Assembly: GCA_964016885.1 (NCBI GenBank) | Contig: OZ024763.1 | Location: forward strand, 25,792,001 to 25,856,000 | Origin: Eledone cirrhosa | Lineage: Eukaryota | Reading direction: 5' to 3' | Length of the DNA: 64,000 nt | Shown here: piece by piece, positions 3,064 through 47,800 of the stretch | Numbering within the stretch: position 1 is the stretch's first letter | How the letters are laid out: each line of letters starts with the position of its first letter | The notes under the pieces: model-generated | Databases searched by the model: none | What the model saw: only the letters and a program-made list of their open reading frames with translations | Told to the model about the DNA's origin: nothing | Made by a program: the position numbers and the translations under genes

Positions 3064-5185
3064 CATCATCATCATCATCATCACCGTTTTACGTCCGTTC
3101 TTCCACGCTAGCATGGGTTAGACGGGTTGTCCTGTTGTGTGCAGTGTCTGGTCGGCTGACCATGCCTTGCTCATACAGGAACTGATCTGGCTTGATTTCT
3201 ACAGCTGGATGCCCTTCCTAACACCAACCTCATTTACAGTGAGTGCTGGGTGCTTTTTCGTGGCGCCTACACGTCCACTTTACAGTGTGGGCTGGGTGCT
3301 TTTTTGCCGTGGCACCTCCACGACCACCTTGCGGTGGGGGGGGGGGGGGGGGGCATATTGTTTATATGCTTCAGCATGTACCCATGGGAGGTCAGGTACC
3401 CTGTATTACTGCGTGACGCCAGAAGTCACGGTCGTGTGTCATTGACTTTGAGAGGTGTAGTTGGGTAAGGTCGGCTTTTATCACCTCATCCCAAGTCATC
3501 TTGGGTCTCCCCACTCCGCGGTTTCCATCAACTTCTAGTGCTCTGCACCTTTTTATGCAGCTGTCATCCTTCATACGCATCACATGTCCATACCAGCGTA
3601 ACCGCCTCTCCTGCACGCAGCATTTGATTCCTCTTATGCTCAGTCTCTCTCTCAATTCATTTATGCTTTGTCGTTCACGTATATTACTGTTACACATCCA
3701 TCGGAGCATGCAGGCTTCGTTTCTCTCTAATCTACGTAAGTCTTCCACCTTCAGCGCCCAGGTCTCACTACCATGCAACATCGCTGTTCGGATACACGCA
3801 TCATACAGTCTGCCTTTCATTCTGAGGGAGAAGCCTTTTGCAGCTAGCAGTGGTAGTAGTTCCCTAAACTTCTTCCATCCCGTTCTTACCCTAGTTATTG
3901 TACTTTCTGAGCACCCACCTCCGTTGCTAATTCGGTCACCTAGGTAGCAGAAGCTGTCTACTGTTTCTACAGGGCCCTCCCAGAGATTGGTGGTACTTGT
4001 TTCCTGTGGCTGTTTGCTTGCTGTTTCAGCACAGCTGCTGCATGTGAATCCTACATTCTTAATTAAGCTTCCTGAGATCCCGCTACATCTCTTGTGTACC
4101 CATTGTTTGCATTTGAGGCAAAGAATGGAGTTCCTACCTACACCTTTCCTACATACTGAGCAAGGCCATTTCCCTGAGGGGATCTGGGTTCTGTTTTCTC
4201 GTCTACTTATAAGGACCTTAGTCTTTGTCATGTTGACTTTGAGGCCCTTTCTCTCTAGTCCCTGCTTCCAGGTTTGGAATTTATTCTCTAGTTCTACCAT
4301 AGATTCAGCTATGAGTGCGAGGTCATCAGCATACAGGAGTTCCCATGGGCATCCGGTCTTAAACTCCTCCGTTATTGCCTGCAGGACTATGATGAACAGG
4401 AGAGGGCTAAGAACAGAGCCCTGGTGGACCCCAACCTGTACGCTAAATTCCTCGCTATACTCATTGCCAATCCTAACTTTGCTGACTGCTCCCCTATACA
4501 TGGCTTGTACCGCTTTCACAAGCCATTCATCTACTCCTAGTTTTCTAAGAGCCCACCAGATTACTGCACGTGGAACTCTGTCAAAGGCTTTCTCAAGGTC
4601 GACAAATGCCAAGTAGAGTGGCTTACTTTTAGCTAGGTACTTTTCCTGTAATTGCCTCACAAGGAAGAGCGCATCAGTGGTGCCTTTCCCTGGTACAAAC
4701 CCAAATTGCATCTCGTCTATATTCACCCGGTCCCTAATCAGCTGTGCTATAACTCTTTCTGTTACTTTCATGACCTGGTCCATCAACTTTATACCTCTAT
4801 AGTTTCCTCTATCTAGTGCATCGCCTTTACCTTTGTAGCAGTTGACAATGATGCTACTGCACCAATCTTTTGGTATGGCCCCCTCTAGTATTACCTGGTT
4901 AACGATACGTGTGGTTATAGTGTGACCTACAGACCCAGATGCCTTCAGCATCTCGGCAGCTATACCCGATGGACCGGTTGCCTTCCCTATCTTCATATCT
5001 CTGATTGCCTTACTTACTACGCTGCCGCTGACTTGTACTGCTGGTCCCTGTATAGGGTCTACGTGGGGTAGGGTCTCTTCTTCCCATGCATTCTCCTCAT
5101 TTAGTAATCTATCATAATGACTCTTCCATGCATCTTTCTTCTCAGCACTTGTGAGGGCAAGCTCACCTTTATCATTCCGGATAGA
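3064..5185 (-). mobile_element. 5'-truncated RTE-clade LINE with intact RT reading frame
   Basis: ORF 3392-4996 (frame open to about 5183) with QFGF, DLEKAFD, QGSVLSP and YADD motifs; (GAT)n tail; probable TSD TGAGAT at 3058-3063 and 5186-5191. Confidence 0.95.
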
Positions 5186-5955
5186 TGAGATGTTTATAAA
5201 TATTTAGTGTTAAGCACAGTTAGAAAGAAAGACGGAGAAAAGGAAGAAGTGTATGTAAAGAAAAACAGAGAGAGATAGAGAGAGATAGGGGAGAGAGAAA
5301 TAGTGAGGAGGTGAAAAATGAGAGGCAGCTGAGGCAACAGATGAATAATAATAATTCATCATACAAATTGAGAGATTTAGGAGGGAGGGAGTACTGTGAT
5401 TATTTATTTATTTATTTATTTAGTTATAGTGTTAAGGAGACGGAGAGAAATAAAAAATAAATAAAGAGAAAACAGAGAGGTAGAGAAAAAAGAGGTAGAC
5501 CGAATAATAATAATTATATATGGGGAGGTGAGAGAAAACAATAGAGAAGCTCGAGAGGCAAAGTTAAAGTAGCCGATACTTAAATTTCATCATGTATAGA
5601 GGGAGGAGAAGAAAGAGCTATATCTAGAGAGAGGATGATAGATTTACAACTTTACGTTATGTCCTATCAATTTGAATTATCAATTCATATGAATTGGGTA
5701 TTATAATGTAAATATCAATATTCATGAATGAGACATAGATATATAATGTGTGAAAAATAATGACCATATGTTTAGTTTAAAAATTGTTAGGTCGATGTAC
5801 CAAAAACTGAGATAAAACTTCAAAAAATACGGAAATACATAAGTATATATGTACTTTCCGGAAAAAGAAATCTCTCAATTTGTATGATGAATTATTATTA
5901 TTCATCTGTTGCCTCAGCTGCCTCTCATTTTTCACCTCCTCACTATTTCTCTCTC

Positions 5956-15904: not shown

Positions 15905-18900
15905 ATAAAAACAAATAACAAAACGAAATTAAATTTCGTTTCGTTTGTAACTCACTTTTGTATGACTGACGCTTAAACAATTAAGTTAAAAATGTACATC
16001 TACATATGCATACTGAAATACTAGTGTGTATATGAATACACACACGTATACATATGTAGGTGTAACAAGTCTTTCACTGGTTGCTTTACTGTGAGCAACC
16101 CAGCTATTTTGTATGTAAACACACAGACAAACCGGTTTTTAGAGTCATACTGGTTTTCGGGGGAACACCTTCCCTCTATTCTCCAGAAAGCCAGACAAGG
16201 AATATTGAACTAGTTTCGTTGTTGTTACAACTCATCAGCAATATTTACCTATCTACCGGCCCCTCTGGAGAATTGTAAAAGCACATATCGTTATATGCTT
16301 TTTCTATGAAAATTAGTAGTGGGCAGACTAATTTGCATAGAGTGTGAGTACGCACCGGTTCAGCGGAGACGATAAAAACAAATAACAAAACGAAATTAAA
16401 TTTCGTTTCGTTTGTAACTCACTTTTGTATGACTGACGCTTAAACAATTAAGTTAAAAATGTACATCTACATATGCATACTGAAATACTAGTGTGTATAT
16501 GAATACACACACGTATACATATGTAGGTGTAACAAGTCTTTCACTGGTTGCTTTACTGTGAGCAACCCAGCTATTTTGTATGTAAACACACAGACAAACC
16601 GGTTTTTAGAGTCATACTGGTTTTCGGGGGAACACCTTCCCTCTATTCTCCAGAAAGCCAGACAAGGAATATTGAACTAGTTTCGTTGTTGTTACAACTC
16701 ATCAGCAATATTTACCTATCTACCGGCCCCTCTGGAGAATTGTAAAAGCACATATCGTTATATGCTTTTTCTATGAAAATTAGTAGTGGGCAGACTAATT
16801 TGCATAGAGTGTGAGTACGCACCGGTTCAGCGGAGACGATAAAAACAAATAACAAAACGAAATTAAATTTCGTTTCGTTTGTAACTCACTTTTGTATGAC
16901 TGACGCTTAAACAATTAAGTTAAAAATGTACATCTACATATGCATACTGAAATACTAGTGTGTATATGAATACACACACGTATACATATGTAGGTGTAAC
17001 AAGTCTTTCACTGGTTGCTTTACTGTGAGCAACCCAGCTATTTTGTATGTAAACACACAGACAAACCGGTTTTTAGAGTCATACTGGTTTTCGGGGGAAC
17101 ACCTTCCCTCTATTCTCCAGAAAGCCAGACAAGGAATATTGAACTAGTTTCGTTGTTGTTACAACTCATCAGCAATATTTACCTATCTACCGGCCCCTCT
17201 GGAGAATTGTAAAAGCACATATCGTTATATGCTTTTTCTATGAAAATTAGTAGTGGGCAGACTAATTTGCATAGAGTGTGAGTACGCACCGGTTCAGCGG
17301 AGACGATAAAAACAAATAACAAAACGAAATTAAATTTCGTTTCGTTTGTAACTCACTTTTGTATGACTGACGCTTAAACAATTAAGTTAAAAATGTACAT
17401 CTACATATGCATACTGAAATACTAGTGTGTATATGAATACACACACGTATACATATGTAGGTGTAACAAGTCTTTCACTGGTTGCTTTACTGTGAGCAAC
17501 CCAGCTATTTTGTATGTAAACACACAGACAAACCGGTTTTTAGAGTCATACTGGTTTTCGGGGGAACACCTTCCCTCTATTCTCCAGAAAGCCAGACAAG
17601 GAATATTGAACTAGTTTCGTTGTTGTTACAACTCATCAGCAATATTTACCTATCTACCGGCCCCTCTGGAGAATTGTAAAAGCACATATCGTTATATGCT
17701 TTTTCTATGAAAATTAGTAGTGGGCAGACTAATTTGCATAGAGTGTGAGTACGCACCGGTTCAGCGGAGACGATAAAAACAAATAACAAAACGAAATTAA
17801 ATTTCGTTTCGTTTGTAACTCACTTTTGTATGACTGACGCTTAAACAATTAAGTTAAAAATGTACATCTACATATGCATACTGAAATACTAGTGTGTATA
17901 TGAATACACACACGTATACATATGTAGGTGTAACAAGTCTTTCACTGGTTGCTTTATTGAATATTGAACTAGTTTCGTTGTTGTTACAACTCATCAGCAA
18001 TATTTACCTATCTACCGGCCCCTCTGGAGAATTGTAAAAGCACATATCGTTATATGCTTTTTCTATGAAAATTAGTAGTGGGCAGACTAATTTGCATAGA
18101 GTGTGAGTACGCACCGGTTCAGCGGAGACGATAAAAACAAATAACAAAACGAAATTAAATTTCGTTTCGTTTGTAACTCACTTTTGTATGACTGACGCTT
18201 AAACAATTAAGTTAAAAATGTACATCTACATATGCATACTGAAATACTAGTGTGTATATGAATACACACACGTATACATATGTAGGTGTAACAAGTCTTT
18301 CACTGGTTGCTTTACTGTGAGCAACCCAGCTATTTTGTATGTAAACACACAGACAAACCGGTTTTTAGAGTCATACTGGTTTTCGGGGGAACACCTTCCC
18401 TCTATTCTCCAGAAAGCCAGACAAGGAATATTGAACTAGTTTCGTTGTTGTTACAACTCATCAGCAATATTTACCTATCTACCGGCCCCTCTGGAGAATT
18501 GTAAAAGCACATATCGTTATATGCTTTTTCTATGAAAATTAGTAGTGGGCAGACTAATTTGCATAGAGTGTGAGTACGCACCGGTTCAGCGGAGACGATA
18601 AAAACAAATAACAAAACGAAATTAAATTTCGTTTCGTTTGTAACTCACTTTTGTATGACTGACGCTTAAACAATTAAGTTAAAAATGTACATCTACATAT
18701 GCATACTGAAATACTAGTGTGTATATGAATACACACACGTATACATATGTAGGTGTAACAAGTCTTTCACTGGTTGCTTTACTGTGAGCAACCCAGCTAT
18801 TTTGTATGTAAACACACAGACAAACCGGTTTTTAGAGTCATACTGGTTTTCGGGGGAACACCTTCCCTCTATTCTCCAGAAAGCCAGACAAGGAATATTG

Positions 18901-21745
18901 AACTAGTTTCGTTGTTGTTACAACTCATCAGCAATATTTACCTATCTACCGGCCCCTCTGGAGAATTGTAAAAGCACATATCGTTATATGCTTTTTCTAT
19001 GAAAATTAGTAGTGGGCAGACTAATTTGCATAGAGTGTGAGTACGCACCGGTTCAGCGGAGACGATAAAAACAAATAACAAAACGAAATTAAATTTCGTT
19101 TCGTTTGTAACTCACTTTTGTATGACTGACGCTTAAACAATTAAGTTAAAAATGTACATCTACATATGCATACTGAAATACTAGTGTGTATATGAATACA
19201 CACACGTATACATATGTAGGTGTAACAAGTCTTTCACTGGTTGCTTTACTGTGAGCAACCCAGCTATTTTGTATGTAAACACACAGACAAACCGGTTTTT
19301 AGAGTCATACTGGTTTTCGGGGGAACACCTTCCCTCTATTCTCCAGAAAGCCAGACAAGGAATATTGAACTAGTTTCGTTGTTGTTACAACTCATCAGCA
19401 ATATTTACCTATCTACCGGCCCCTCTGGAGAATTGTAAAAGCACATATCGTTATATGCTTTTTCTATGAAAATTAGTAGTGGGCAGACTAATTTGCATAG
19501 AGTGTGAGTACGCACCGGTTCAGCGGAGACGATAAAAACAAATAACAAAACGAAATTAAATTTCGTTTCGTTTGTAACTCACTTTTGTATGACTGACGCT
19601 TAAACAATTAAGTTAAAAATGTACATCTACATATGCATACTGAAATACTAGTGTGTATATGAATACACACACGTATACATATGTAGGTGTAACAAGTCTT
19701 TCACTGGTTGCTTTACTGTGAGCAACCCAGCTATTTTGTATGTAAACACACAGACAAACCGGTTTTTAGAGTCATACTGGTTTTCGGGGGAACACCTTCC
19801 CTCTATTCTCCAGAAAGCCAGACAAGGAATATTGAACTAGTTTCGTTGTTGTTACAACTCATCAGCAATATTTACCTATCTACCGGCCCCTCTGGAGAAT
19901 TGTAAAAGCACATATCGTTATATGCTTTTTCTATGAAAATTAGTAGTGGGCAGACTAATTTGCATAGAGTGTGAGTACGCACCGGTTCAGCGGAGACGAT
20001 AAAAACAAATAACAAAACGAAATTAAATTTCGTTTCGTTTGTAACTCACTTTTGTATGACTGACGCTTAAACAATTAAGTTAAAAATGTACATCTACATA
20101 TGCATACTGAAATACTAGTGTGTATATGAATACACACACGTATACATATGTAGGTGTAACAAGTCTTTCACTGGTTGCTTTACTGTGAGCAACCCAGCTA
20201 TTTTGTATGTAAACACACAGACAAACCGGGTTGCTCACAGTAAAGCAACCAGTGAAAGACTTGTTACACCTACATATGTATACGTGTGTGTATTCATATA
20301 CACACTAGTATTTCAGTATGCATATGTAGATGTACATTTTTAACTTAATTGTTTAAGCGTCAGTCATACAAAAGTGAGTTACAAACGAAACGAAATTTAA
20401 TTTCGTTTTGTTATTTGTTTTTATCGTCTCCGCTGAACCGGTGCGTACTCACACTCTATGCAAATTAGTCTGCCCACTACTAATTTTCATAGAAAAAGCA
20501 TATAACGATATGTGCTTTTACAATTCTCCAGAGGGGCCGGTAGATAGGTAAATATTGCTGATGAGTTGTAACAACAACGAAACTAGTTCAATATTCCTTG
20601 TCTGGCTTTCTGGAGAATAGAGGGAAGGTGTTCCCCCGAAAACCAGTATGACTCTAAAAACCGGTTTGTCTGTGTGTTTACATACAAAATAGCTGGGTTG
20701 CTCACAGTAAAGCAACCAGTGAAAGACTTGTTACACCTACATATGTATACGTGTGTGTATTCATATACACACTAGTATTTCAGTATGCATATGTAGATGT
20801 ACATTTTTAACTTAATTGTTTAAGCGTCAGTCATACAAAAGTGAGTTACAAACGAAACGAAATTTAATTTCGTTTTGTTATTTGTTTTTATCGTCTCCGC
20901 TGAACCGGTGCGTACTCACACTCTATGCAAATTAGTCTGCCCACTACTAATTTTCATAGAAAAAGCATATAACGATATGTGCTTTTACAATTCTCCAGAG
21001 GGGCCGGTAGATAGGTAAATATTGCTGATGAGTTGTAACAACAACGAAACTAGTTCAATATTCCTTGTCTGGCTTTCTGGAGAATAGAGGGAAGGTGTTC
21101 CCCCGAAAACCAGTATGACTCTAAAAACCGGTTTGTCTGTGTGTTTACATACAAAATAGCTGGGTTGCTCACAGTAAAGCAACCAGTGAAAGACTTGTTA
21201 CACCTACATATGTATACGTGTGTGTATTCATATACACACTAGTATTTCAGTATGCATATGTAGATGTACATTTTTAACTTAATTGTTTAAGCGTCAGTCA
21301 TACAAAAGTGAGTTACAAACGAAACGAAATTTAATTTCGTTTTGTTATTTGTTTTTATCGTCTCCGCTGAACCGGTGCGTACTCACACTCTATGCAAATT
21401 AGTCTGCCCACTACTAATTTTCATAGAAAAAGCATATAACGATATGTGCTTTTACAATTCTCCAGAGGGGCCGGTAGATAGGTAAATATTGCTGATGAGT
21501 TGTAACAACAACGAAACTAGTTCAATATTCCTTGTCTGGCTTTCTGGAGAATAGAGGGAAGGTGTTCCCCCGAAAACCAGTATGACTCTAAAAACCGGTT
21601 TGTCTGTGTGTTTACATACAAAATAGCTGGGTTGCTCACAGTAAAGCAACCAGTGAAAGACTTGTTACACCTACATATGTATACGTGTGTGTATTCATAT
21701 ACACACTAGTATTTCAGTATGCATATGTAGATGTACATTTTTAAC

Positions 21746-21751
<6 letters not shown>
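15905..21751. mobile_element. Retrozyme-like array 1: 467-bp hammerhead-bearing monomer, about 9.5 copies (ribozyme on -) then about 3.3 inverted copies (ribozyme on +), flanked by (TA)n
   Basis: Unit starts at 15905, 16372, 16839, 17306, 17773, 18131, 18598, 19065, 19532, 19999; inversion at about 20228; 12 hammerhead cores. Confidence 0.9.
20524..20617 (+). ncRNA. Hammerhead ribozyme of array 1 (representative; + cores at 20558, 21025, 21492; nine - strand cores from 16232 to 19859)
   Basis: aatattg CUGAUGA gttgt-aaca-acaac GAAA ctag UU caatatt; stem I extends to ttctccaga/tctggagaa; palindromic stem III CTAG. Confidence 0.92.
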
Positions 21752-22535: not shown

Positions 22536-22843
22536 AATATATAAACAACCTTCTGGTTATCGAACCAACCAACCAACCGGAAATTTATGATAAATTGAAG
22601 TGAAAACCAACAAGTGAGTGTGTTTTTATTGGTAACATGACCTTCCCAAAGTATAACAATATGTATATATATATATATATATATGTATATGTGTGGTAAG
22701 GGTGGGTGAGAGTATGTGTGTATTTTTCTCTCTCTCTGTGTGGCTATATTGATTCATTTTTTTTCTCTCTCTCTCTCTCTCACTTTCTGTCCTTGTCTCA
22801 TTTTATTTTTTCCACATATCATTCCTTTTTCTTTCTTCCAAAG

Positions 22844-23040
22844 AAGGAGTCATAAAGCTGCAGGCCAAATTGAGGGTCCCAGAAACCATATCAATGACTG
22901 TGTGGTGTGCTCTGATAAACCAGCCAATGTGAAATTCCAGCCTTGCGGCCATGTTGTTACCTGTGAAGACTGCAGCCTAAAAATTACAATTAAAAAATGT
23001 ATCCAGTGTAAAGTGCCTGTAATTAGTAAAATTGGAGTTG
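22844..23040 (+). CDS. MIB2: MIB2 exon encoding first RING finger
   Basis: Polypyrimidine tract, AAG/AAG tandem acceptor, G|gtaggt donor; CVVCSDKPANVKFQPCGHVVTCEDCSLKITIKKCIQCKVPV (C3HC4); phases 2 and 1 fit neighbouring exons. Confidence 0.9.
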
Positions 23041-23477
23041 GTAGGTAGAAGGTTCTATATCTGTCTGTCTATATAGCTATCTATCTATCTATCTATTTTT
23101 CTATCTGTCTCTCTGTCTAGCTGTCTGTCTGTCTGTTTAGCTGTTTGTCTATCTCTCTGTCTGTCTGTGTGTCTATTCATGTGTCTGTCTGTCTATGTAT
23201 CTATCTCTGTGTCTATCTGTATCCAGTGGAATCTCCCTGTAATTAGTAAAATTGAAGTTGGTAGGTAGAGGTTCTATATCTGTCTGTCTGTCTGCCTGCC
23301 TGTCTGTCTGTCTGCCTAGCTGTCTATATGTCTTTATGTCTGTGTGTCTATCTATCTGTCTGTCTGTTCGGCTTCGTACATTATATATATCTGTGTGTGT
23401 ATATACATATATATATATACAACTTTAAATAGGTTTAAACATTTGGAAGTCTGACAATGCGTGCAAGATCAAAGGTG

Positions 23478-23532
<55 letters not shown>

Positions 23533-23836
23533 AAACTGGGACGGGAACAAAAACAGAGAGGCAGTACAAAGGTTTATTAGGCTCACGCTCTTATATATAT
23601 ATTAAAAAAACACACAGTCCACGATGTAATGTGGCCGTGTAGGTAACAGTAAAAACCTCCCAGTCCACACTGTAAACGTGGTTGGTGTTAGGAAGGGCAT
23701 CCAGCCGTAGAAAACCCGCCAGACAGTCCTATACGAGCAAGACAACCAATCTTGCCTCAAGTGGGAAAATTCCCGTCCAAACCCATGCTAGCGTGGAAGA
23801 TGGACGTTAAACGATGAGATATATATATATATATAT

Positions 23837-26800
23837 ATTGGAATAAATGCTCTGAAATAGCGATATATATGTGAATATAGACATAGAATATTCGAAAATA
23901 TTCTGTATGTTTATAATAAACATTTTGAAGACCTAATCGCTATAGAATAGAATACGTCACGTATTACAATTAGATTCTCGATAAAAGCAAGGGAAGTAAT
24001 CTACGCGTTTCATTCTTGTTAGAAATCATCAGGACCACATATCCAGTGCTTTTATCGAGAATGACACAGCTAGAGACTTATAGAATACTTAGCTGTGTAC
24101 AGGAACTGGTTTGAAAGAGCGGTTGCCGGTCCGGCAGAAATTAGAAATTGGAATAAATGCTCTGAAATAGCGATATATATGTGAATATAGACATAGAATA
24201 TTCGAAAATATTCTGTATGTTTATAATAAACATTTTGAAGACCTAATCGCTATAGAATAGAATACGTCACGTATTACAATTAGATTCTCGATAAAAGCAA
24301 GGGAAGTAATCTACGCGTTTCATTCTTGTTAGAAATCATCAGGACCACATATCCAGTGCTTTTATCGAGAATGACACAGCTAGAGACTTATAGAATACTT
24401 AGCTGTGTACAGGAACTGGTTTGAAAGAGCGGTTGCCGGTCCGGCAGAAATTAGAAATTGGAATAAATGCTCTGAAATAGCGATATATATGTGAATATAG
24501 ACATAGAATATTCGAAAATATTCTGTATGTTTATAATAAACATTTTGAAGACCTAATCGCTATAGAATAGAATACGTCACGTATTACAATTAGATTCTCG
24601 ATAAAAGCAAGGGAAGTAATCTACGCGTTTCATTCTTGTTAGAAATCATCAGGACCACATATCCAGTGCTTTTATCGAGAATGACACAGCTAGAGACTTA
24701 TAGAATACTTAGCTGTGTACAGGAACTGGTTTGAAAGAGCGGTTGCCGGTCCGGCAGAAATTAGAAATTGGAATAAATGCTCTGAAATAGCGATATATAT
24801 GTGAATATAGACATAGAATATTCGAAAATATTCTGTATGTTTATAATAAACATTTTGAAGACCTAATCGCTATAGAATAGAATACGTCACGTATTACAAT
24901 TAGATTCTCGATAAAAGCAAGGGAAGTAATCTACGCGTTTCATTCTTGTTAGAAATCATCAGTCCTGATGATTTCTAACAAGAATGAAACGCGTAGATTA
25001 CTTCCCTTGCTTTTATCGAGAATCTAATTGTAATACGTGACGTATTCTATTCTATAGCGATTAGGTCTTCAAAATGTTTATTATAAACATACAGAATATT
25101 TTCGAATATTCTATGTCTATATTCACATATATATCGCTATTTCAGAGCATTTATTCCAATTTCTAATTTCTGCCGGACCGGCAACCGCTCTTTCAAACCA
25201 GTTCCTGTACACAGCTAAGTATTCTATAAGTCTCTAGCTGTGTCATTCTCGATAAAAGCACTGGATATGTGGTCCTGATGATTTCTAACAAGAATGAAAC
25301 GCGTAGATTACTTCCCTTGCTTTTATCGAGAATCTAATTGTAATACGTGACGTATTCTATTCTATAGCGATTAGGTCTTCAAAATGTTTATTATAAACAT
25401 ACAGAATATTTTCGAATATTCTATGTCTATATTCACATATATATCGCTATTTCAGAGCATTTATTCCAATTTCTAATTTCTGCCGGACCGGCAACCGCTC
25501 TTTCAAACCAGTTCCTGTACACAGCTAAGTATTCTATAAGTCTCTAGCTGTGTCATTCTCGATAAAAGCACTGGATATGTGGTCCTGATGATTTCTAACA
25601 AGAATGAAACGCGTAGATTACTTCCCTTGCTTTTATCGAGAATCTAATTGTAATACGTGACGTATTCTATTCTATAGCGATTAGGTCTTCAAAATGTTTA
25701 TTATAAACATACAGAATATTTTCGAATATTCTATGTCTATATTCACATATATATCGCTATTTCAGAGCATTTATTCCAATTTCTAATTTCTGCCGGACCG
25801 GCAACCGCTCTTTCAAACCAGTTCCTGTACACAGCTAAGTATTCTATAAGTCTCTAGCTGTGTCATTCTCGATAAAAGCACTGGATATGTGGTCCTGATG
25901 ATTTCTAACAAGAATGAAACGCGTAGATTACTTCCCTTGCTTTTATCGAGAATCTAATTGTAATACGTGACGTATTCTATTCTATAGCGATTAGGTCTTC
26001 AAAATGTTTATTATAAACATACAGAATATTTTCGAATATTCTATGTCTATATTCACATATATATCGCTATTTCAGAGCATTTATTCCAATTTCTAATTTC
26101 TGCCGGACCGGCAACCGCTCTTTCAAACCAGTTCCTGTACACAGCTAAGTATTCTATAAGTCTCTAGCTGTGTCATTCTCGATAAAAGCACTGGATATGT
26201 GGTCCTGATGATTTCTAACAAGAATGAAACGCGTAGATTACTTCCCTTGCTTTTATCGAGAATCTAATTGTAATACGTGACGTATTCTATTCTATAGCGA
26301 TTAGGTCTTCAAAATGTTTATTATAAACATACAGAATATTTTCGAATATTCTATGTCTATATTCACATATATATCGCTATTTCAGACCATTTATTCCAAT
26401 TTCTAATTTCTGCCGGACCGGCAACCGCTCTTTCAAACCAGTTCCTGTACACAGCTAAGTATTCTATAAGTCTCTAGCTGTGTCATTCTCGATAAAAGCA
26501 CTGGATATGTGGTCCTGATGATTTCTAACAAGAATGAAACGCGTAGATTACTTCCCTTGCTTTTATCGAGAATCTAATTGTAATACGTGACGTATTCTAT
26601 TCTATAGCGATTAGGTCTTCAAAATGTTTATTATAAACATACAGAATATTTTCGAATATTCTATGTCTATATTCACATATATATCGCTATTTCAGAGCAT
26701 TTATTCCAATTTCTAATTTCTGCCGGACCGGCAACCACTCTTTCAAACCAGTTCCTGTACACAGCTAAGTATTCTATAAGTCTCTAGCTGTGTCATTCTC

Positions 26801-27601
26801 GATAAAAGCACTGGATATGTGGTCCTGATGATTTCTAACAAGAATGAAACGCGTAGATTACTTCCCTTGCTTTTATCGAGAATCTAATTGTAATACGTGA
26901 CGTATTCTATTCTATAGCGATTAGGTCTTCAAAATGTTTATTATAAACATACAGAATATTTTCGAATATTCTATGTCTATATTCACATATATATCGCTAT
27001 TTCAGAGCATTTATTCCAATTTCTAATTTCTGCCGGACCGGCAACCGCTCTTTCAAACCAGTTCCTGTACACAGCTAAGTATTCTATAAGTCTCTAGCTG
27101 TGTCATTCTCGATAAAAGCACTGGATATGTGGTCCTGATGATTTCTAACAAGAATGAAACGCGTAGATTACTTCCCTTGCTTTTATCGAGAATCTAATTG
27201 TAATACGTGACGTATTCTATTCTATAGCGATTAGGTCTTCAAAATGTTTATTATAAACATACAGAATATTTTCGAATATTCTATGTCTATATTCACATAT
27301 ATATCGCTATTTCAGAGCATTTATTCCAATTTCTAATTTCTGCCGGACCGGCAACCGCTCTTTCAAACCAGTTCCTGTACACAGCTAAGTATTCTATAAG
27401 TCTCTAGCTGTGTCATTCTCGATAAAAGCACTGGATATGTGGTCCTGATGATTTCTAACAAGAATGAAACGCGTAGATTACTTCCCTTGCTTTTATCGAG
27501 AATCTAATTGTAATACGTGACGTATTCTATTCTATAGCGATTAGGTCTTCAAAATGTTTATTATAAACATACAGAATATTTTCGAATATTCTATGTCTAT
27601 A

Positions 27602-27605
<4 letters not shown>
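23837..27605. mobile_element. Retrozyme-like array 2: 310-bp hammerhead-bearing monomer, about 3.6 copies (ribozyme on -) then about 8.5 inverted copies (ribozyme on +), flanked by (TA)n
   Basis: 310-bp period (ggtcctgatg at 25271, 25581, ..., 27441); inversion at 24962-24965; only two substitutions noticed (26387, 26737). Confidence 0.9.
25245..25333 (+). ncRNA. Hammerhead ribozyme of array 2 (representative)
   Basis: tggtc CUGAUGA t-ttct-aaca-agaa-t GAAA cgcg UA gatta; distal stem I attctcgataaaagca/tgcttttatcgagaat is a perfect 16-bp pairing; palindromic stem III CGCG. Confidence 0.85.
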
Positions 27606-27673
<68 letters not shown>

Positions 27674-28921
27674 GGAGGCACATGGTTTAGTGGTTAGAGC
27701 ATTGGCCTTGCAATCAAAAGGTTGTGAGTTCAATTCTCAGACCGGGTGATGTGTTGTTTCCTTGAGCAAGACACTATTTCACATTGCTCCAGTTTACTCA
27801 GCTGTAGAAATGAGATGATAGGACTGGGGTCCCTATCATTCCACTGCAAAGTGGTCGTGGAGGTGCCACGACAAAAATGCACCCAGCACTGACTGTAAAT
27901 GAGGTTGGTGTTAGGAAAAGCATCCAGCTGTAGAAATCAAGCCAGAATCAGTTCCCGTCCCATCCTTGCAAGCAGGGAAAAAGCAGTCGTAAAATGAAAT
28001 GATGATGATAATGGCTGCCCCCTCGTTATCGAGTATAGCCATTGCACAATATAACATTATTAATAATTATCAATTAATTCTATCGTGCAATGCCTGTGCA
28101 TGAAGATTTTTTTAAAGTGGGGAAAGACTGTGCACTGAGCCAATCCCACTCTGTGAGCGACAGTAGCTATAACCTGAAAAGAAGAAAAGATCAACATCAT
28201 CGGTAACTACTGATCCACAGGTTTTGTGTTGGAATTATCCCCGTTTCCTGTGTTGCCTTCTCCTAGAAGAATGCCCTGACAAAGGCTAGGGGTCCTTCAC
28301 TTCCAGTGTTATAACCGTGCGACTGGGTATCCAGCCTGATTATTTCTATGTCCCCACACTTATACACATGTATATACATCTTTACACATTTTTTTTTTGG
28401 AAGGGGGGGATAACCATTGACTCTTATGAGTTCTTCCACCCTTTGTCAGGTTTTATTTTTTGTCCTGCAGCGTGTGCATAATTTCCTTCCTCACTAAGTA
28501 AACATCTATATAGAATTGACTGTCCCATCTCAAATTAGAAACCATTCTTTCATATTTCAATCTCAGAACAAGGTTTGGAACATAAGTCGCATATGGCTTC
28601 TCGCCCTCAATTTCTTTCCTTTATTTTATTTTATTTTATTTTAGTAAAAAAAATAAGTTGTGGCTTATCTATGAATGTATCAATTATAATAATTGAAGTA
28701 GACATTAGGAGAAGATAACTCTTGATCTTAGAAGAAATTAATGAGTCACTACAGGTTTATTACCCTTACTTAGGTAAAGAAAACTTGTTTGGGCACCATC
28801 TTATGTGGATATTTATAGCGGGTCAAATGCTAGGATTAATGGTTGTGTTGTGGTGTTGGTCTTTCCAATAGCTAATTCTATCTACTGGTCGCAATCCAGG
28901 ATATGCTCCGAAATCAATAGA

Positions 28922-29011
28922 TGTGTCCGAGGAACCTGTGAATCCAGAGTCTGGTCGATCCACACACAGATCGCACCTCGAGCTGTTTGCCGGGGAAACA
29001 ATTGTAACACA
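28922..29011 (+). ncRNA. Hammerhead variant with long stem II (core CCGAGGA)
   Basis: tgtgt CCGAGGA ... GAAA caattg UA acaca; homologous to 37046-37137. Confidence 0.6.
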
Positions 29012-29077
29012 CAATAATTTGAGTTCCGATGCATCACTGATTTTTCGTTTTCCATTCTATATATATATATATATATA

Positions 29078-29410
29078 CAGAGTACCCGACCTCCCATGGG
29101 TACATGCTGAAGCATATAAACAATATGCCCCCACACCCCCCACCGCAAGGTGGTCGTGGAGGTGCCACAGCAAAAAAGCACCCAGCCCACACTGTAAAGT
29201 GGACGTGTAGGCGCCACGAAAAAGTACCCAGCACTCACTGTAAATGAGGTTGGTGTTAGGAAGGGCATCCAGCTGTAGAAATCAAGCCAGATCAGTTCCT
29301 GTATGAGCAAGGCATGGTCAGCCGACCAGACACTGCACACAACAGGACAACCCGTCTAACCCATGCTAGCGTGGAAGAACGGACGTAAAACGGTGATGAT
29401 GATGATGATG
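29078..29410 (+). mobile_element. RTE 3' UTR-only insertion (other RTE tails at 23605-23818, 35380-35662, 35685-35905, 36380-36540, 37525-37800, 57695-58290, 63783-63985)
   Basis: Near-exact reverse complement of 3064-3400; (GAT)n tail. Confidence 0.85.
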
Positions 29411-29586
29411 ATATATATATATATATATATAACTACATGGCTAAATACAATAAATGTAGTCTGAGTTTTTCGAATATTAATAATAACATTCGATTCGTTT
29501 GCAATTATGCAAACAAGCCTCAATTTTATAGCCATGTCAGTAGAATGAACACTTCATTCTTGCTCTTGTTTGGCATGCGAACAGAA

Positions 29587-29630
29587 CTGCAGACACTAAC
29601 GTTTCTGAGTATCACCCTTCATCAGTGCAG
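29587..29630 (-). ncRNA. Minimal hammerhead in the loop of a ~100-bp inverted repeat (29461-29563 / 29656-29755)
   Basis: Minus strand: ctgca CUGAUGA a-ggg-tgata-ctc-a GAAA cgttagtg UC tgcag. Confidence 0.65.
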
Positions 29631-29966
29631 CCAAACTGTCAGAGCTAGTCAAAATGCAAGAATGAAGTGTTCATTCTACTGACATGGCTATAAAATTGAG
29701 GCTTGTTTGCATAATTGCAAACAAATCGAATGTTATTAATATTCGAAAAACTCAGCTTATATTTATTATACATATATAAAGGGCGGTGGATTAGCAGTAT
29801 CGGTAGAGGGTCGGACGCCATGCTTTGACGTATGGAGTTACGGCCCTTGCCATTCTGAGTTCAAATCCCGCCGAGGTTAACTTTGCCTTTCATCCTTACG
29901 GGGTTGATAAAATAAAGTACCAGTAATGCACTGAGTACTTGCTGGCCTTGTGCCAATAGTAGAAAC

Positions 29967-30005
<39 letters not shown>

Positions 30006-30248
30006 AAGTATTTCCGAGGAAAAAGCAAGTTAGGCGTATGTTAATATTGTCTAAGGTCCTGAAACCTTTAGTAATGGAGTAGTTATATATTGTGAGGACA
30101 ACCTGTCTAACCCATGCTAGCGTGGAAGAAGGGACGTAAAACGGTGATGATGATGATAACTATATATATATATATATATTATATATATACACTATATATA
30201 TATATACACACTATATATATATATATATCTGTAAATAATCTCTCTCTG

Positions 30249-30286
<38 letters not shown>

Positions 30287-30339
30287 CTCTATATATATAT
30301 ATATACTCTCTCTATATATATATATGCTCTATATATATA

Positions 30340-30391
<52 letters not shown>

Positions 30392-30730
30392 TCTATATAT
30401 ATATATATATATATATACTCTATATATATATATATATATACTATATATATATATATATATATACACTCTATATATATATATATATATATACACTCTATAT
30501 ATATATATATATATATATACACTCTATATATGTATATATATATACACTCTATATATGTATATATATATACACTCTATATATGTATATATATACACACTCT
30601 ATATATGTATATATATATATATACACTCTATATATATATATACTCTATATATACACTCTATATATATATATCTGTAAATAATCTCTCTCTGTCTCTATAT
30701 ATCTATATATATGTATTATTTCTTCTCTAG

Positions 30731-30963
30731 ATACTTCAGATGGCTCCTCCTTCAGTATTCTAAATACACAGCCAACCTCACTGGATTCCACACATCAACA
30801 GATCCAAGAGTTGGAAGAACAGATCACATGTTCTATCTGCATGGAACGGCGTCGCAACATGGCGTTTGTGTGCGGCCACACCACGTGCAAAGAGTGCGGG
30901 GACGTGTTGAAGCAGTGTCATATGTGTCGCAAACCAATTCAGAAGAAAATCATTTTGTATTGA
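30731..30963 (+). CDS. MIB2: MIB2 terminal coding exon, C-terminal RING finger
   Basis: ctctag acceptor; ...QIQELEEQITCSICMERRRNMAFVCGHTTCKECGDVLKQCHMCRKPIQKKIILY-TGA. Two RINGs after the ankyrins fit MIB2 (MIB1 has three). Confidence 0.92.
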
Positions 30964-32065: not shown

Positions 32066-32132
32066 TATTTTATTATACATATTTCAGAGGTACTGAGCTA
32101 TCTTCAACAGTACATCCTCATCAGATAAAATA
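32066..32132 (-). ncRNA. Hammerhead (inverted partner of 32206-32272)
   Basis: Reverse complement of the + copy with two substitutions in stem II. Confidence 0.75.
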
Positions 32133-38892: not shown

Positions 38893-41800
38893 CCACCACC
38901 ACCAACACTACCATCACCACTACTATCACCTCTATCACTACCAACACTACCACCACCACCACCAACACTACCATCACCACTACTATCACCTCTATCACTA
39001 CCAACACTACCACCACCAACAACACTACCATCAACACTACTATCACCTCTATCACTACCAACACTACCACCACCACCAACACTACCATCACCACTACTAT
39101 CACCTCTATCACTACCAACACTACCACCACCACCACCAACACTACCACCACCACCAACAACACTACCACCACCACTACTATCACCTCTATCACTACCAAC
39201 ACTACCACCACCACCACCAACACTACCATCACCACTACTATCACCTCTATCACTACCAACACTACCATCACCACTACTATCACCTCTATCACTACCAACA
39301 CTACCACCACCACCAACAACACTACCAACACCACTACTATCACCTCTATCACTACCAACACTACCACCACCACCAACACTACCACCACCACTACTATCAC
39401 CTCTATCACTACCAACACTACCACCACCACCAACAACACTACCACCACCACTACTATCACCTCTATCACTACCAACACTACCACCACCACCACCAACACT
39501 ACCACCACCACTACTATCACCTCTATCACTACCACCACCACTACTATCACCTCTATCACTACCAACACTACCACCACCACCACCAACACTACCATCACCA
39601 CTACTATCACCTCTATCACTACCAACACTACCACCACCACCACCAACACTACCACCAACAACACTACCACCACCACTACTATCACCTCTATCACTACCAA
39701 CACTACCACCACCACCAACACTACCATCACCACTACTATCACCTCTATCACTACCAACACTACCACCACCACCACCAACAACACTACCATCACCACTACT
39801 ATCACCTCTATCACTACCAACACTACCACCACCACCAACACTACCACCACCACTACTATCACCTCTATCACTACCAACACTACCACCACCACCAACACTA
39901 CCATCACCACTACTATCACCTCTATCACTACCAACACTACCACCACCACCACCAACACTACCACCACCACTACTATCACCTCTATCACTACCAACACTAC
40001 CACCACCACCAACACTACCATCACCACTACTATCACCTCTATCACTACCAACACCACCACCACCACCAACACTACCACCACCACTACTATCACCTCTATC
40101 ACTACCAACACTACCACCACCACCAACAACACTACCACCACCACCAACAACACTACCACCACCACTACTATCACCTCTATCACTACCAACACCACCACCA
40201 CCACCAACACTACCACCACCACTACTATCACCTCTATCACTACCAACACTACCACCACCACCACCAACACTACCACCACCACTACTATCACCTCTATCAC
40301 TACCAACACTACCACCACCACCACCAACACTACCATCACCACTACTATCACCTCTATCACTACCAACACTACCACCACCACCAACAACACTACCATCACC
40401 ACTACTATCACCTCTATCACTACCAACACTACCACCACCACCAACACTACCACCACCACTACTATCACCTCTATCACTACCAACACTACCACCACCACCA
40501 ACACTACCATCACCACTACTATCACCTCTATCACTACCAACACTACCACCACCACCACCAACACTACCACCACCACTACTATCACCTCTATCACTACCAA
40601 CACTACCACCACCACCAACACTACCACCACCACTACTATCACCTCTATCACTACCAACACTACCACCACCAACAACACTACCATCACCACTACTATCACC
40701 TCTATCACTACCAACACTACCACCACCACCAACACTACCACCACCACTACTATCACCTCTATCACTACCAACACTACCACCACCACCAACACTACCATCA
40801 CCACTACTATCACCTCTATCACTACCAACACTACCACCACCACCAACACTACTATCACCTCTATCACTACCAACACTACCAACACCACCAACAACACTAC
40901 CACCACCACTACTATCACCTCTATCACTACCAACACTACCACCACCAACAACACTACCATCACCACTACTATCGCCTCTATCACTACCAACACCACCACC
41001 ACCACCAACACTACCACCACCACTACTATCACCTCTATCACTACCAACACTACCACCACCACCAACAACACTACCACCACCACCACCAACACTACCACCA
41101 CCACTACTATCACCTCTATCCCTACCAACACTACCACCACCACCAACAACACTACCACCACCACTACTATCACCTCTATCACTACCAACACTACCACCAC
41201 CACCAACACTACCATCACCACTACTATCACCTCTATCACTACCAACACTACCACCACCACCACCAACACTACCATCACCACTACTATCACCTCTATCACT
41301 ACCAACACTACCACCACCACCAACACTACCACCACCACTACTATCACCTCTATCACTACCAACACTACCACCACCAACAACAACACTACCAACACCACTA
41401 CTATCACCTCTATCACTACCAACACTACCACCACCACCAACACTACCACCACCACTACTATCACCTCTATCACTACCAACACTACCACCACCACCAACAC
41501 TACCACCACCACTACTATCACCTCTATCACTACCAACACTACCACCACCACCAACACTACCAACACCACTACTAACACCTCTATCACTACCAACACTACC
41601 ACCACCACCAACACTACCACCACCACTACTATCACCTCTATCACTACCAACACTACCACCACCACCAACAACACTACCACCACCACTACTATCACCTCTA
41701 TCACTACCAACACTACCACCACCACCACCAACACTACCACCACCACTACTATCACCTCTATCACTACAACCACCACTACTATCACCTCTATCACTACCAA

Positions 41801-44800
41801 CACTACCACCACCACCACCAACACTACCATCACCACTACTATCACCTCTATCACTACCAACACTACCACCACCACCACCAACACTACCACCACCACCAAC
41901 AACACTACCACCACCACTACTATCACCTCTATCACTACCAACACTACCACCACCACCAACAACACTACCATCACCACTACTATCACCTCTATCACTACCA
42001 ACACCACCACCACCACCAACACTACCACCACCACTACTATCACCTCTATCACTACCAACACTACCACCAACAACACTACCACCACCACTACTATCACCTC
42101 TATCACTACCAACACTACCACCACCACCACCAACACTACCACCACCACTACTATCACCTCTATCACTACCACCACCACTACTATCACCTCTATCACTACC
42201 AACACTACCACCACCACCACCAACACTACCATCACCACTACTATCACCTCTATCACTACCAACACTACCACCACCACCACCAACACTACCACCACCACTA
42301 CTATCACCTCTATCACTACCAACACTACCACCACCACCAACAACACTACCATCACCACTACTATCACCTCTATCACTACCAACACCACCACCACCACCAA
42401 CACTACCATCACCACTACTATCACCTCTATCACTACCAAGACTACCACCACCACCAACAACACTACCATCACCACTACTATCACCTCTATCACTACCAAC
42501 ACTACCACCACCACCAACACTACCACCACCACTACTATCACCTCTATCACTACCAACACTACCACCACCACCAACACTACCATCACCACTACTATCACCT
42601 CTATCACTACCAACACTACCACCACCACCACCAACACTACCACCACCACTACTATCACCTCTATCACTACCAACACTACCACCACCACCAACACTACCAC
42701 CACCACTACTATCACCTCTATCACTACCAACACTACCACCACCAACAACACTACCACCACCACTACTATCACCTCTATCACTACCAACACTACCACCACC
42801 ACCAACACTACCACCACCACTACTATCACCTCTATCACTACCAACACTACCACCACCACCAACACTACCATCACCACTACTATCACCTCTATCACTACCA
42901 ACACTACCACCACCACCAACACTACTATCACCTCTATCACTACCAACACTACCACCACCACCAACACTACCATCACCACTACTATCACCTCTATCACTAC
43001 CAACACTACCACCACCACCACCAACACTACCACCACCACTACTATCACCTCTATCACTACCAACACTACAACCACCACCAACAACACTACCACCACAACT
43101 ACTATCACCTCTATCACTACCAACACTACCACCACCACCAACAACACTACCACCACCACTACTATCACCTCTATCACTACCAACACTACCACCACCACCA
43201 ACACTACCACCACCACTACTATCACCTCTATCACTACCAACACTACCACCACCAACAACACTACCATCAACACTACTATCACCTCTATCACTACCAACAC
43301 TACCACCACCACCAACACTACCATCACCACTACTATCACCTCTATCACTACCAACACTACCACCACCACCAACACTACCATCACCACTACTATCACCTCT
43401 ATCACTACCAACACTACCACCACCACCACCAACACTACCACCACCACTACTATCACCTCTATCACTACCAACACTACCACCACCACCAACAACACTACCA
43501 CCACCACTACTATCACCTCTATCACTACCAACACTACCACCACCACCAACAACACTACCACCACCACTACTATCACCTCTATCACTACCAACACTACCAC
43601 CACTAACAACACTACCACCACCACTACTATCACCTCTATCACTACCAACACTACCACCACCAACAACAACACTACCATCAACACTACTATCACCTCTATC
43701 ACTACCAACACTACCACCACCACCAACAACACTACCACCACCACTACTATCACCTCTATCACTACCAACACTACCACCACCACCAACACTACCACCACCA
43801 CTACTATCACCTCTATCACTACCAACACTACCACCACCAACAACACTACCACCACCACTACTATCACCTCTATCACTACCAACACTACCACCACCACCAA
43901 CAACACTACCACCACCACTACTATCACCTCTATCACTACCAACACTCACCACCACCAACAACACTACCACCACCACTACTATCACCTCTATCACTACCAC
44001 ACCACCACCAACAACAACACTACCACCACCACTACTATCACCTCTATCACTACCAACACTACCACCACCAACAACACTACCACCACCACTACTATCACCT
44101 CTATCACTACCAACACTACCACCACCACCAACAACACTACCACCACCACTACTATCACCTCTATCACTACCAACACTACCACCACCACCAACAACACTAC
44201 CACCACCACTACTATCACCTCTATCACTACCAACACTACCACCACCACCAACAACACTACCACCACCACTACTATCACCTCTATCACTACCAACAATACC
44301 ACCACCAACAACAACACTACCACCACCACTACTATCACCTCTATCACTACCAACACTACCACCACCTACAACAACACTACCACCACCACTACTATCACCT
44401 CTATCACTACCAACACTACCACCACCAACAACAACACTACCACCACCACTACTATCACCTCTATCACTACCAACACTACCACCACCAACAACAACTACCA
44501 CCACCACTACTATCACCTCTATCACTACCAACACTACCACCACCACCAACAACACTACCACCACCACTACTATCACCTCTATCACTACCAACACTACCAC
44601 CACCACCAACAACACTACCACCACCACTACTATCACCTCTATCACTACCAACACTACTACCACCACCACCAACAACACTACCACCACCACTACTATCACC
44701 TCTATCACTACCAACACTACCACCACCACCAACAACACTACCACCACCACTACTATCACCTCTATCACTACCAACACTACCACCACCACCAACAACACTA

Positions 44801-47800
44801 CCATCACCACTACTATCACCTCTATCACTACCAACACTACCACCACCACCAACAACAACACTACCACCACCACTACTATCACCTCTATCACTACCAACAC
44901 TACCACCACCACCAACAACACTACCACCACCACTACTATCACCTCTATCACTACCAACACTACCACCACTAACAACACTACCACCACCACTACTATCACC
45001 TCTATCACTACCAACACTACCACCACCAACAACAATACTACCACCACCACTACTATCACCTCTATCATTACCAACACTACCACCACTAACAACACTACCA
45101 CCACCACTACTATCACCTCTATCACTACCACCACCAACAACAACACTACCACCACCACTACTATCACCTCTATCACTACCAACACTACCACCACTAACAA
45201 CACTACCACCACCACTACTATCACCTCTATCACTACCAACACTACCACCACCACCAACAACACTACCACCTCCACTACTATCACCTCTATCACTACCAAC
45301 ACTACCACCACCAACAACAACACTACCACCACCACTACTATCACCTCTATCACTACCAACACTACCACCACCACCAACAACACTACCATCACCACTACTA
45401 TCACCTCTATCACTACCACCACCACCAACAACACTACCACCACCACTACTATCACCTCTATCACTACCACCACCACCAACAACACTACCACCACCACTAC
45501 TATCACCTCTATCACTACCAACACTACCACCACCACCAACACTACCACCACCACTACTATCACCTCTATCACTACCAACACTACCACCACCACCAACACT
45601 ACCATCACCACTACTATCACCTCTATCACTACCAACACTACCACCACCACCACCAACACTACCACCACCACTACTATCACCTCTATCACTACCAACACTA
45701 CAACCACCACCAACAACACTACCACCACAACTACTATCACCTCTATCACTACCAACACTACCACCACCACCAACAACACTACCACCACCACTACTATCAC
45801 CTCTATCACTACCAACACTACCACCACCACCAACACTACCACCACCACTACTATCACCTCTATCACTACCAACACTACCACCACTAACAACACTACCACC
45901 ACCACTACTATCACCTCTATCACTACCAACACTACCACTACCAACAACAACACTACCACCACCACTACTATCACCTCTATCACTACCAACACTACCACCA
46001 CCAACAACACTACCATCACCACTACTATCACCTCTATCACTACCAACACTACCACCACCACCACCAACAACACTACCATCACCACTACTATCACCTCTAT
46101 CACTACCAACACTACCACCACCACCAACAACACTACCACCACCACTACTATCACCTCTATCACTACCAACACTACCACCACCACCAACAACACTACCACC
46201 ACCACTACTATCACCTCTATCACTACCAACACTACCACCACTAACAACACTACCACCACTAACAACACTACCACCACCACTACTATCACCTCTATCACTA
46301 CCAACACTACCACCACCAACAACAACACTACCACCACCACTACTATCACCTCTATCATTACCAACACTACCACCACTAACAACACTACCACCACCACTAC
46401 TATCACCTCTATCACTACCACCACCAACAACAACACTACCACCACCACTACTATCACCTCTATCACTACCAACACTACCACCACTAACAACACTACCACC
46501 ACCACTACTATCACCTCTATCACTACCAACACTACCACCACCACCAACAACACTACCACCTCCACTACTATCACCTCTATCACTACCAACACTACCACCA
46601 CCAACAACAACACTACCACCACCACTACTATCACCTCTATCACTACCAACACTACCACCACCACCAACAACACTACCATCACCACTACTATCACCTCTAT
46701 CACTACCACCACCACCAACAACACTACCACCACCACTACTATCACCTCTATCACTACCACCACCACCAACAACACTACCACCACCACTACTATCACCTCT
46801 ATCACTACCAACACTACCACCACCACCAACAACACTACCACCACCACTACTATCACCTCTATCACTACCAACACTACTACCACCACCACCAACAACACTA
46901 CCACCACCACTACTATCACCTCTATCACTACCAACACTACCACCACCACCAACAACACTACCATCACCACTACTATCACCTCTATCACTACCAACACTAC
47001 CACCACCACCACCAACACTACCACCACCACTACTATCACCTCTATCACTACCAACACTACCACCACCACCAACAACACTACCACCACCACTACTATCACC
47101 TCTATCACTACCAACACTACCACCACCACCAACAACACTACCACCACCACTACTATCACCTCTATCACTACCAACACTACCACCACCACCAACACTACCA
47201 TCATCACTACTATCACCTCTATCACTACCAACACTACCACCACCACCAACAACACTACCACCACCACTACTATCACCTCTATCACTACCAACACTACCAT
47301 CACCACTACTATCACCTCTATCACTACCAACACTACTACCACCACCACCACCAACACTACCATTACCACTACTATCACCTCTATCACTACCAACACTACC
47401 ACCACCACCAACAACACTACCATCACCACTACTATCACCTCTATCACTACCAACACTACCACCACTACCAACAACACTACCACCACCACTACTATCACCT
47501 CTATCACTACCAACACTACCACCACCACTACTATCACCTCTATCACTACCAACACTACCACCACCACCAACAACACTACCACCACCACTACTATGACCTC
47601 TATCACTACCAACACTACCACCACCACCAACAACACTACCACCACCACTACTATCACCTCTATCACTACCAACACTACCACCACCACCACCAACACTACC
47701 ACCACCACTACTATCACCTCTATCACTACCAACACTACCACCACCCACCAACACTACCATCACCACTACTATCACCTCTATCACTACCAACACTACCACC

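Follow-up and report, generated by a model that had tools for sequence, protein, structure and literature searches.

The window analysed here, a stretch of 64,000 nucleotides (nt) from Eledone cirrhosa (assembly GCA_964016885.1, contig OZ024763.1, positions 25,792,001 to 25,856,000, forward strand), contains at positions 23837 to 27605 a tandem array of a 310-nt unit that carries a hammerhead ribozyme motif with a U·U apposition at the base of stem II. We describe this array together with its genome-wide family and hold with fair confidence that it represents a young, non-coding family of the retrozyme kind, whose predicted U·U hammerhead would be slow and cut as a dimer, and which a Penelope-like element (PLE) would have copied into (TA)n microsatellites from a single circular RNA.

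Tandem Repeats Finder resolves the locus into two 310-bp tandem arrays of opposite orientation, 23837-24962 and 24962-27614. The left arm (23837..24962) comprises 3.63 units, has its hammerhead sense on the minus strand and reaches its outer, or tail, end at monomer position 165; monomer position 1 corresponds throughout to position 25306 of the window. The right arm (24962..27605) comprises 8.53 units with the hammerhead sense on the plus strand and ends outward at monomer 130, a limit that moves to 139 when the alignment may run into the TA repeat with one mismatch. The arms meet head-to-head at 24962, a single base common to both, where monomer 280 is joined to 277; as a consequence, little or nothing of the 5' strand of stem I is left in the two cores at the centre. 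Both outer ends adjoin the target microsatellite, (TA)n, which occupies 23819..23836 on the left and 27605..27671 on the right. A 35-nt tail, monomer 131-165, is present at the left outer end only (23837..23871, minus strand) and was compared with the PLE tail of PMC11167929. The unit, exemplified from predicted cut to predicted cut by 25306..25615 (plus strand), is 310 bp long with ~34% GC, and only two substitutions (26387 and 26737) occur across the whole array. No stop-to-stop frame of 120 amino acids is found within the array, which thus lacks the open reading frame (ORF) for reverse transcriptase (RT) and GIY-YIG domains of an autonomous PLE.

The hammerhead motif is of type I and spans 25269..25311 on the plus strand. 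Stem I pairs 25269-25274 with 25306-25311, the core starts at 25275, U10.1 and U11.1 lie at 25282 and 25295 on either side of the AACA loop II (25287-25290), and the palindromic stem III (25299-25304) precedes the predicted cut after 25305, at the end of the GUA site. All 13 cores of the array (nine on the plus strand, four on the minus strand) read CUGAUGA-U UUCU AACA AGAA U-GAAA-CGCG-UA. The original prediction, made from the letters of the window, had described the GUA site, the core and the CGCG stem III as intact and the closing pair of stem II as U-U in every copy, and the 13 cores bear this out. Compared with the type I consensus (PMC3088659), the canonical positions C3 U4 G5 A6 N7 G8 A9, G12 A13 A14, A15.1-U16.1 and H17 are all present; the canonical G10.1-C11.1 pair is not, the family having U·U, A-U or G·U instead. 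An Rfam scan of the window at gathering thresholds returned no match, the hammerhead score falling below the cut-off. Stem I consists of 6 bp including the two G-U pairs noted earlier, although the second is not typical of the family: it occurs in 4/76 loci, the other 72 having A at this site. The perfect 16-bp distal stem that had been pointed out is the longest perfect stem of the unit (monomer 13-28 with 250-265; one strand at 25318..25333, plus, its partner at 25555-25570 of the same unit). The four inverted pairs attributed to the unit all exist, but the 1-nt loop of atgtttat-t-ataaacat cannot form as drawn. The predicted monomer fold is stable relative to 100 dinucleotide shuffles (z = -4.4), and two copies of the stem III palindrome are predicted to pair at -9.5 kcal/mol.

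A second array of the window, array 1 (15905-21751), also consists of two head-to-head arms in (TA)n, with a 467-nt unit, a G-C closing pair and a GUU site; its ends lie 74 nt apart on the unit, a distance that exceeds the usual tail, and there is an internal jump near 17959. The statement that the two arrays have the AACA loop in common while their monomers are otherwise unrelated is accurate, BLAST likeness being confined to the hammerhead region (73% over 62 nt). This loop had been read as a conserved tertiary contact or a protein-recognition site. A UA-containing 5' bulge in stem I, 6-7 bp from the core, accompanies the AACA loop in three families, a combination that fits the known contact between loop I and loop II (PMC6155905) better than a protein site; the loop probably serves this contact, and protein recognition finds no support.

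RING-finger coding stretches at ~22830-23045 and 30748-30960 flank the 310-nt array (host context 22830..30960, plus strand), and ankyrin coding stretches lie upstream on the same strand at 1831, 8938, 11900 and 12999. The gene model drawn from this arrangement suggests an intronic position for the array, within a gene for a Mind-bomb-like E3 ligase and with the right arm in sense. Arrays 1 and 2 would both occupy introns of the suggested gene (1831-30960, plus strand). If array 2 is intronic, the pre-mRNA would contain an inverted repeat of 1.1 kb along with eight hammerheads that are complete and in sense; the head-to-head layout would yield sense hammerhead multimers from whichever strand is read. 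Elsewhere in the window, a C/A-rich tandem repeat of ~16 kb with almost no G on the plus strand extends from 38893 to 54802, and a 603-amino-acid stop-to-stop frame with a reverse-transcriptase-like YADD motif (3392-5203, minus strand) is probably a LINE fragment.

The organisation seen in the window is that of the family. Genome-wide, 1,014 tail-to-TA junctions were found, and the 101 loci compared here comprise 21 that were not selected by their ends (the window and 20 of its best matches) and 80 picked by their 165 end (the first 81 less one duplicate, all on contig C1). Two head-to-head arms are present in 20 of the 21 loci not selected by their ends, and 19 of these 21 terminate at 127-139 and 159-172, the exceptions being the truncated L031 and the one-armed L039. 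Of the 80 loci picked by their 165 end, 76 have a second, inverted arm that ends at 138-139, and four are one-armed. TA occurs at both ends in 90/93 two-armed loci, identifying a microsatellite target, and the 3' side of the hammerhead points outward at nearly all loci. This is the footprint of Penelope-like insertions, which consist of a head-to-head inverted copy and a one-sided tail of 30-40 nt (PMC8557442; PMC3846280). In vitro, a PLE protein cleaves AT-rich DNA on both strands and extends each of them, its RT starting at two sites on the RNA that bound the tail (PMC11167929). Two pairs of loci, L127 with L258 and L104 with L257, form single arms of ~45 and ~27 units, respectively, over which repeated variants are scattered; they reflect either growth after insertion or an error of assembly.

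An exact pattern recovers 18,303 intact cores from the 3.0-Gb genome of the species, the reversed control giving 0. U·U with the AACA loop accounts for 5,568 copies genome-wide; another 4,014 copies with this loop have a base other than U at 10.1, and it forms A-U in all of the 100 matches listed. G or C at 10.1 occurs in 52 copies (51 of them G·U, distributed over six arrays, and a single C·U), all of which retain U11.1, and a base other than U at 11.1 is found in only six copies genome-wide. No G-C at 10.1/11.1 was found by the genome-wide patterns. Counted by locus among the 76 that include a core, U·U is present in 58 and A-U in 18; counted by copy, U·U amounts to 505/707. The U·U pair is therefore the majority state of the family and no mark of a decayed copy. 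The AACA loop is not a fixed consensus: the alleles AACA, AACG, AAUA and UACG each fill whole arrays. The AAUA subfamilies are all U·U and hold 19 of the 24 G8 mutants as well as the most diverged loci, for which reason U·U is likely ancestral and A-U derived. Recent mobilisation, also part of the original prediction, is supported by the identical units that dominate 15 other loci on several contigs. Read as a whole, the family is a natural mutational scan of the hammerhead, in which position 10.1 is free among U, A and G and U11.1 is held. An older related repeat shares monomer 59-235 at ~72-78% and the same 165 end, with a U3-A8 core and a G-C closing pair (L149:3950-4630, L160:2920-3330, L129:7750-7960 and L097:5-111).

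What was copied into these loci can be approached through the haplotypes of the two arms. A seven-site hammerhead haplotype is the same in both arms of 62/65 loci, against 16% if the arms were independent. Three loci depart from this rule: the discrepancy of L170 stems from misalignment, the two arms of L140 switch haplotype together, each beyond its second unit, and those of L114 differ. The predicted cut site is crossed by 171 of 180 arms, and at least three times by 113. Inner ends and junctions were analysed in 91 loci, ten of the 101 being left out as single-armed, complex or cut off. The inner ends are spread evenly over the unit (chi-square p = 0.87; 4/182 within 5 nt of the cut), which rules out run-off at the cut site as the step ending the arms. 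At L250:3391 there is an internal 45-nt repeat with a jump starting exactly at the predicted cut (monomer 1), possibly a run-off from a cleaved RNA end. With the unit of each locus as its own reference, the 91 junctions comprise 14 that are blunt, 55 with 1-6 nt shared, one with 16 and 21 with insertions, often copied from the unit. Microhomology of at least 2 nt is found in 39 of the 70 insertion-free junctions compared with 17.8% of simulated random joins, a pattern that we take to resemble microhomology-mediated end joining.

A monomer step is best supported by the G·U loci. Among these, L250 is a mosaic that contains two haplotypes in one unit each. The first is fixed in L254, which has nine full units and carries G10.1 in either arm; the second is fixed in L252 (7/7 sites). 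Because no L250 unit with the 5' half of L254 follows a G10.1 unit, L254 cannot result from linear read-through of L250, and a unit must therefore have been joined to itself. These loci point to a monomer circle copied repeatedly.

The alternative that fares best keeps the Penelope-like protein as the mover but takes as template an uncleaved linear multimer left by a weak U·U ribozyme, the length and uniformity of arrays arising later through gene conversion and unequal exchange. In vitro, a PLE acted mainly on unprocessed RNA (PMC11167929), and several features of the arrays speak for such a template and against a single circle. In L044, L123 and L140 only the outermost unit or units bear variants, in the same order in both arms, which would be better explained by a linear multimer or a template switch. 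Five long arrays (L242, L244, L245, L246 and L258) display clear block duplication after insertion. In L242, L247 and L114 the two arms have variants in common but not in the same order, which denotes gene conversion or an exchange of templates; the length and uniformity of arms are for these reasons not pure records of reverse transcription. The evidence for the circle is also limited in that the parent-daughter case of L250 is one set of six loci with inferred parentage. A linear template is nevertheless unlikely, since read-through of L250 would not produce L254 unless a unit was joined to itself. Moreover, the 94 loci with at least three units display 29 different majority units, 19 of which are seen once, 758/940 units correspond to the majority of their locus, and same-order variants are shared between arms in only 3/101 loci. 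Spaced mutant pairs were considered as signs of multimeric circles and are better accounted for as block duplications, since their period does not run on through the two arms. Read coverage of one unit in four sequencing runs (very deep and variant-rich in X1; single 340-base contigs at a depth of 10-26 in X3, X5 and X6) was not used because a circle is not distinguishable from tandem DNA or carry-over.

The activity of the hammerhead can be approached through its mutants. Genome-wide there are 24 copies mutated at G8, 24 at G12 and six at U11.1, and no array filled by any of these mutants was found among ~2,000 loci, whether by coordinates or in the loci examined in full. Because such mutants exist and yet fill no whole array, cleavage is likely needed for spread. 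In the 101 loci, 35 fixed variant types fall at 31 positions, none in the core, and fixed variants of the hammerhead lie at N7, 10.1 or loop II or preserve the pairing of stem I. Natural U10.1-U11.1 hammerheads have been reported, this being the best-tolerated mispair at these positions (PMC3088659), and ~60,000 axolotl motifs have U·U, the monomer cleaving to 22% in 1 h and the dimer far more efficiently (PMC7229834). An attenuated but functional ribozyme, as originally proposed, fits the axolotl analogue and the lack of dead-core arrays. That the U·U core is a surprise finds no support: it is a published and tolerated variant, reported twice and common in other families of this genome, and is ordinary for the class.

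The hammerhead might instead be dead or an irrelevant passenger, the family spreading by Penelope priming signals alone. Weighing on that side, or more generally against our reading, the predicted ensemble gives stem I pair probabilities of 0.85-0.99 against 0.13-0.16 for stem II and 0.0 for a monomeric stem III. Eight of nine predicted dimers of Xenopus retrozymes were inactive in vitro (10.64898/2026.07.22.740005), hammerhead mutants left PLE insertion in vitro unimpaired (PMC11167929), and Naiad PLEs spread without canonical hammerheads. The constraint on the core also has its limits: its avoidance by fixed variants in 101 loci is weak alone (~0.28 chance of missing 12 core sites), and by a hand estimate 17 private fixed events scale to about one per site over ~2,000 loci, so that the ~3 fixed events expected at the three tested sites against none seen make a modest test. 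L247, with G12A in 4/8 cores, comes nearest to a dead-core array; four G12A matches on contig C4 had been considered as a whole dead array, which this count of L247 rules out. We regard a passenger hammerhead as improbable in view of the absence of arrays fixed for a G8, G12 or U11.1 change, of the tolerated sites at which changes do fix and of the cleavage of the axolotl U·U motif.

The inverted arrangement could also stem from one self-priming cDNA folded back on itself, instead of two cDNAs. A single haplotype common to both arms would be expected from this route, and self-priming has been proposed for head-to-head copies of rotifer PLEs (PMC3846280). A fold-back copy cannot exceed its template, whereas either arm may be the longer here (the tail arm in 50/92 loci), and the arms meet at the same monomer position in only 3/92, the others joining scattered and unrelated positions; fold-back copying is accordingly a quite improbable origin. 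Ordinary satellite DNA, amplified by recombination or extrachromosomal DNA circles with no RNA step, would explain the tandem layout and the post-insertion duplications and is very hard to reconcile with fixed paired ends, a one-sided tail, TA targeting, constant polarity at nearly all loci, a conserved ribozyme core and the fold stability given above.

A source of the enzyme may exist in the same genome, in which many GIY-YIG matches and frames with RT plus GIY-YIG are present. Counting against our reading, the 50 GIY-YIG loci examined out of 10,597 first-look candidates (30 chosen by GIY-YIG and 20 by long ORF) yielded no pseudo-long terminal repeat (pLTR) with homology to the unit. Matches in L173, L207, L211 and L220 considered as helper pLTR turned out to be separate small hammerhead elements beside ORFs. 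One PLE family ends in the same pattern of TTCA, (TA)n and tail and has a U·U hammerhead-like motif. Its copies (L173, L222-L241) encode a C-terminal GIY-YIG domain and a CxxxxCxxC linker, and their 3' motif combines a U3-A8 core with an A-rich loop of variable sequence and a closing pair that is mostly U·U, while the usual register leaves stem I unpaired; the copies end in TTTTCA-(TA)n with or without a ~35-nt tail, exactly one tail being present in 3/4 two-ended loci. At least four other hammerhead families of the genome close stem II with U·U (L096, L098, L212 and L196; L201 and L137; L207, L211 and L220; L173:2711), one of them with an AACA or AAUA loop and its own two-strand array. Further hammerhead-like motifs of the window lie at 32124 (-), 32214 (+), 2969 (-), 63558 (-) and 29625 (-), the pair 32124/32214 being head-to-head as in short PLE-end insertions.

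The cleavage, circle, enzyme and joining steps that we infer can be assembled into a cycle. Read-through transcription of an array would generate multimers, in which neighbouring hammerheads would pair through the palindromic stem III and release monomers, and a host ligase would close these into circles. A Penelope-type RT/GIY-YIG protein would cut both strands of a TA run and prime one cDNA from each, using two RNA sites (130-139 and 165) separated by ~26-35 nt. The two cDNAs would go round the same RNA several times, and their 3' ends would be joined by microhomology-mediated repair, leaving two head-to-head arms and one tail; long arms would grow further afterwards by block duplication. 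In its most specific form, which we advance tentatively and with a little less than even confidence, this amounts to twin-primed rolling-circle reverse transcription, by a dimeric Penelope protein, of one self-cleaved circular 310-nt RNA with two fixed priming sites and microhomology joining, only circles from a working U·U ribozyme founding lineages.

The U·U pair itself adds little, and the value of the family resides in the genetic evidence that it provides on retrozyme and Penelope insertion. The copying of circular RNA into tandem genomic DNA has so far been a hypothesis for retrozymes, and the origin of the Penelope inverted-plus-tail insertions has been called undefined in the literature. 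With ~18,000 near-identical units, marked haplotypes and stereotyped ends, the family offers genetic evidence on both questions and a small, defined substrate for in vitro work. Should twin-primed rolling-circle copying be correct, the ~2,000 loci would constitute a pedigree in which the retrozyme circle model and the Penelope inverted-plus-tail structure can be tested. We found no literature report of two-armed, tailed retrozyme insertions or of haplotype transmission, subscription papers and some supplements lying outside the search.

Among known systems, the element has every sequence-level feature of the animal non-LTR retrozymes (Cervera and de la Pena 2020, PMC7229834): non-coding tandem units within 150-450 bp, GC content below 50%, no LTR or ORF, one complete type I hammerhead motif per unit, a stable self-paired monomer fold and dispersal over many loci. 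It resembles in particular axolotl Rtz_353, whose hammerhead HHR_Amex2 likewise has a U·U mismatch where stem II begins and is more efficient in dimeric form. It differs in belonging to another sequence family and in being known here from DNA, whereas circles and cleavage have been demonstrated for those retrozymes; head-to-head arms, fixed ends and TA targeting are not described for them in the accessible part of that work. Like the natural U10.1·U11.1 hammerheads (Perreault et al. 2011, PMC3088659), its stem II starts with U·U, and weak palindromic stems III are common among those motifs; unlike in that collection, the variant is counted here across ~18,000 copies, and alleles with A-U or G·U are seen to spread alongside it. 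With the EN+ PLEs of the Neptune/Nematis type (PMC8557442; PMC3846280; PMC11167929; PMC4209133) it shares the inverted 5'-truncated copy, the 30-40 nt tail at one end, microsatellite or AT-rich targets, a type I hammerhead and two RT start sites; it departs from them in the absence of an ORF, in arms many small units long and in the lack of pLTR homology among the PLE loci examined. Integration of circular templates by PLEs has been proposed (PMC4209133; PMC7229834), as has a PLE origin of retrozymes. The latter proposal, in which retrozymes are non-autonomous PLE derivatives (Li, Clavereau and Pollet 2026, 10.64898/2026.07.22.740005), agrees with ours in the co-occurrence with PLEs and the suggested use of their enzyme; its arguments are this co-occurrence and the similarity of pLTRs, and local tandem expansion is the route that it favours, whereas the 310-nt family contributes evidence of a different nature, an insertion footprint and the transmission of haplotypes.

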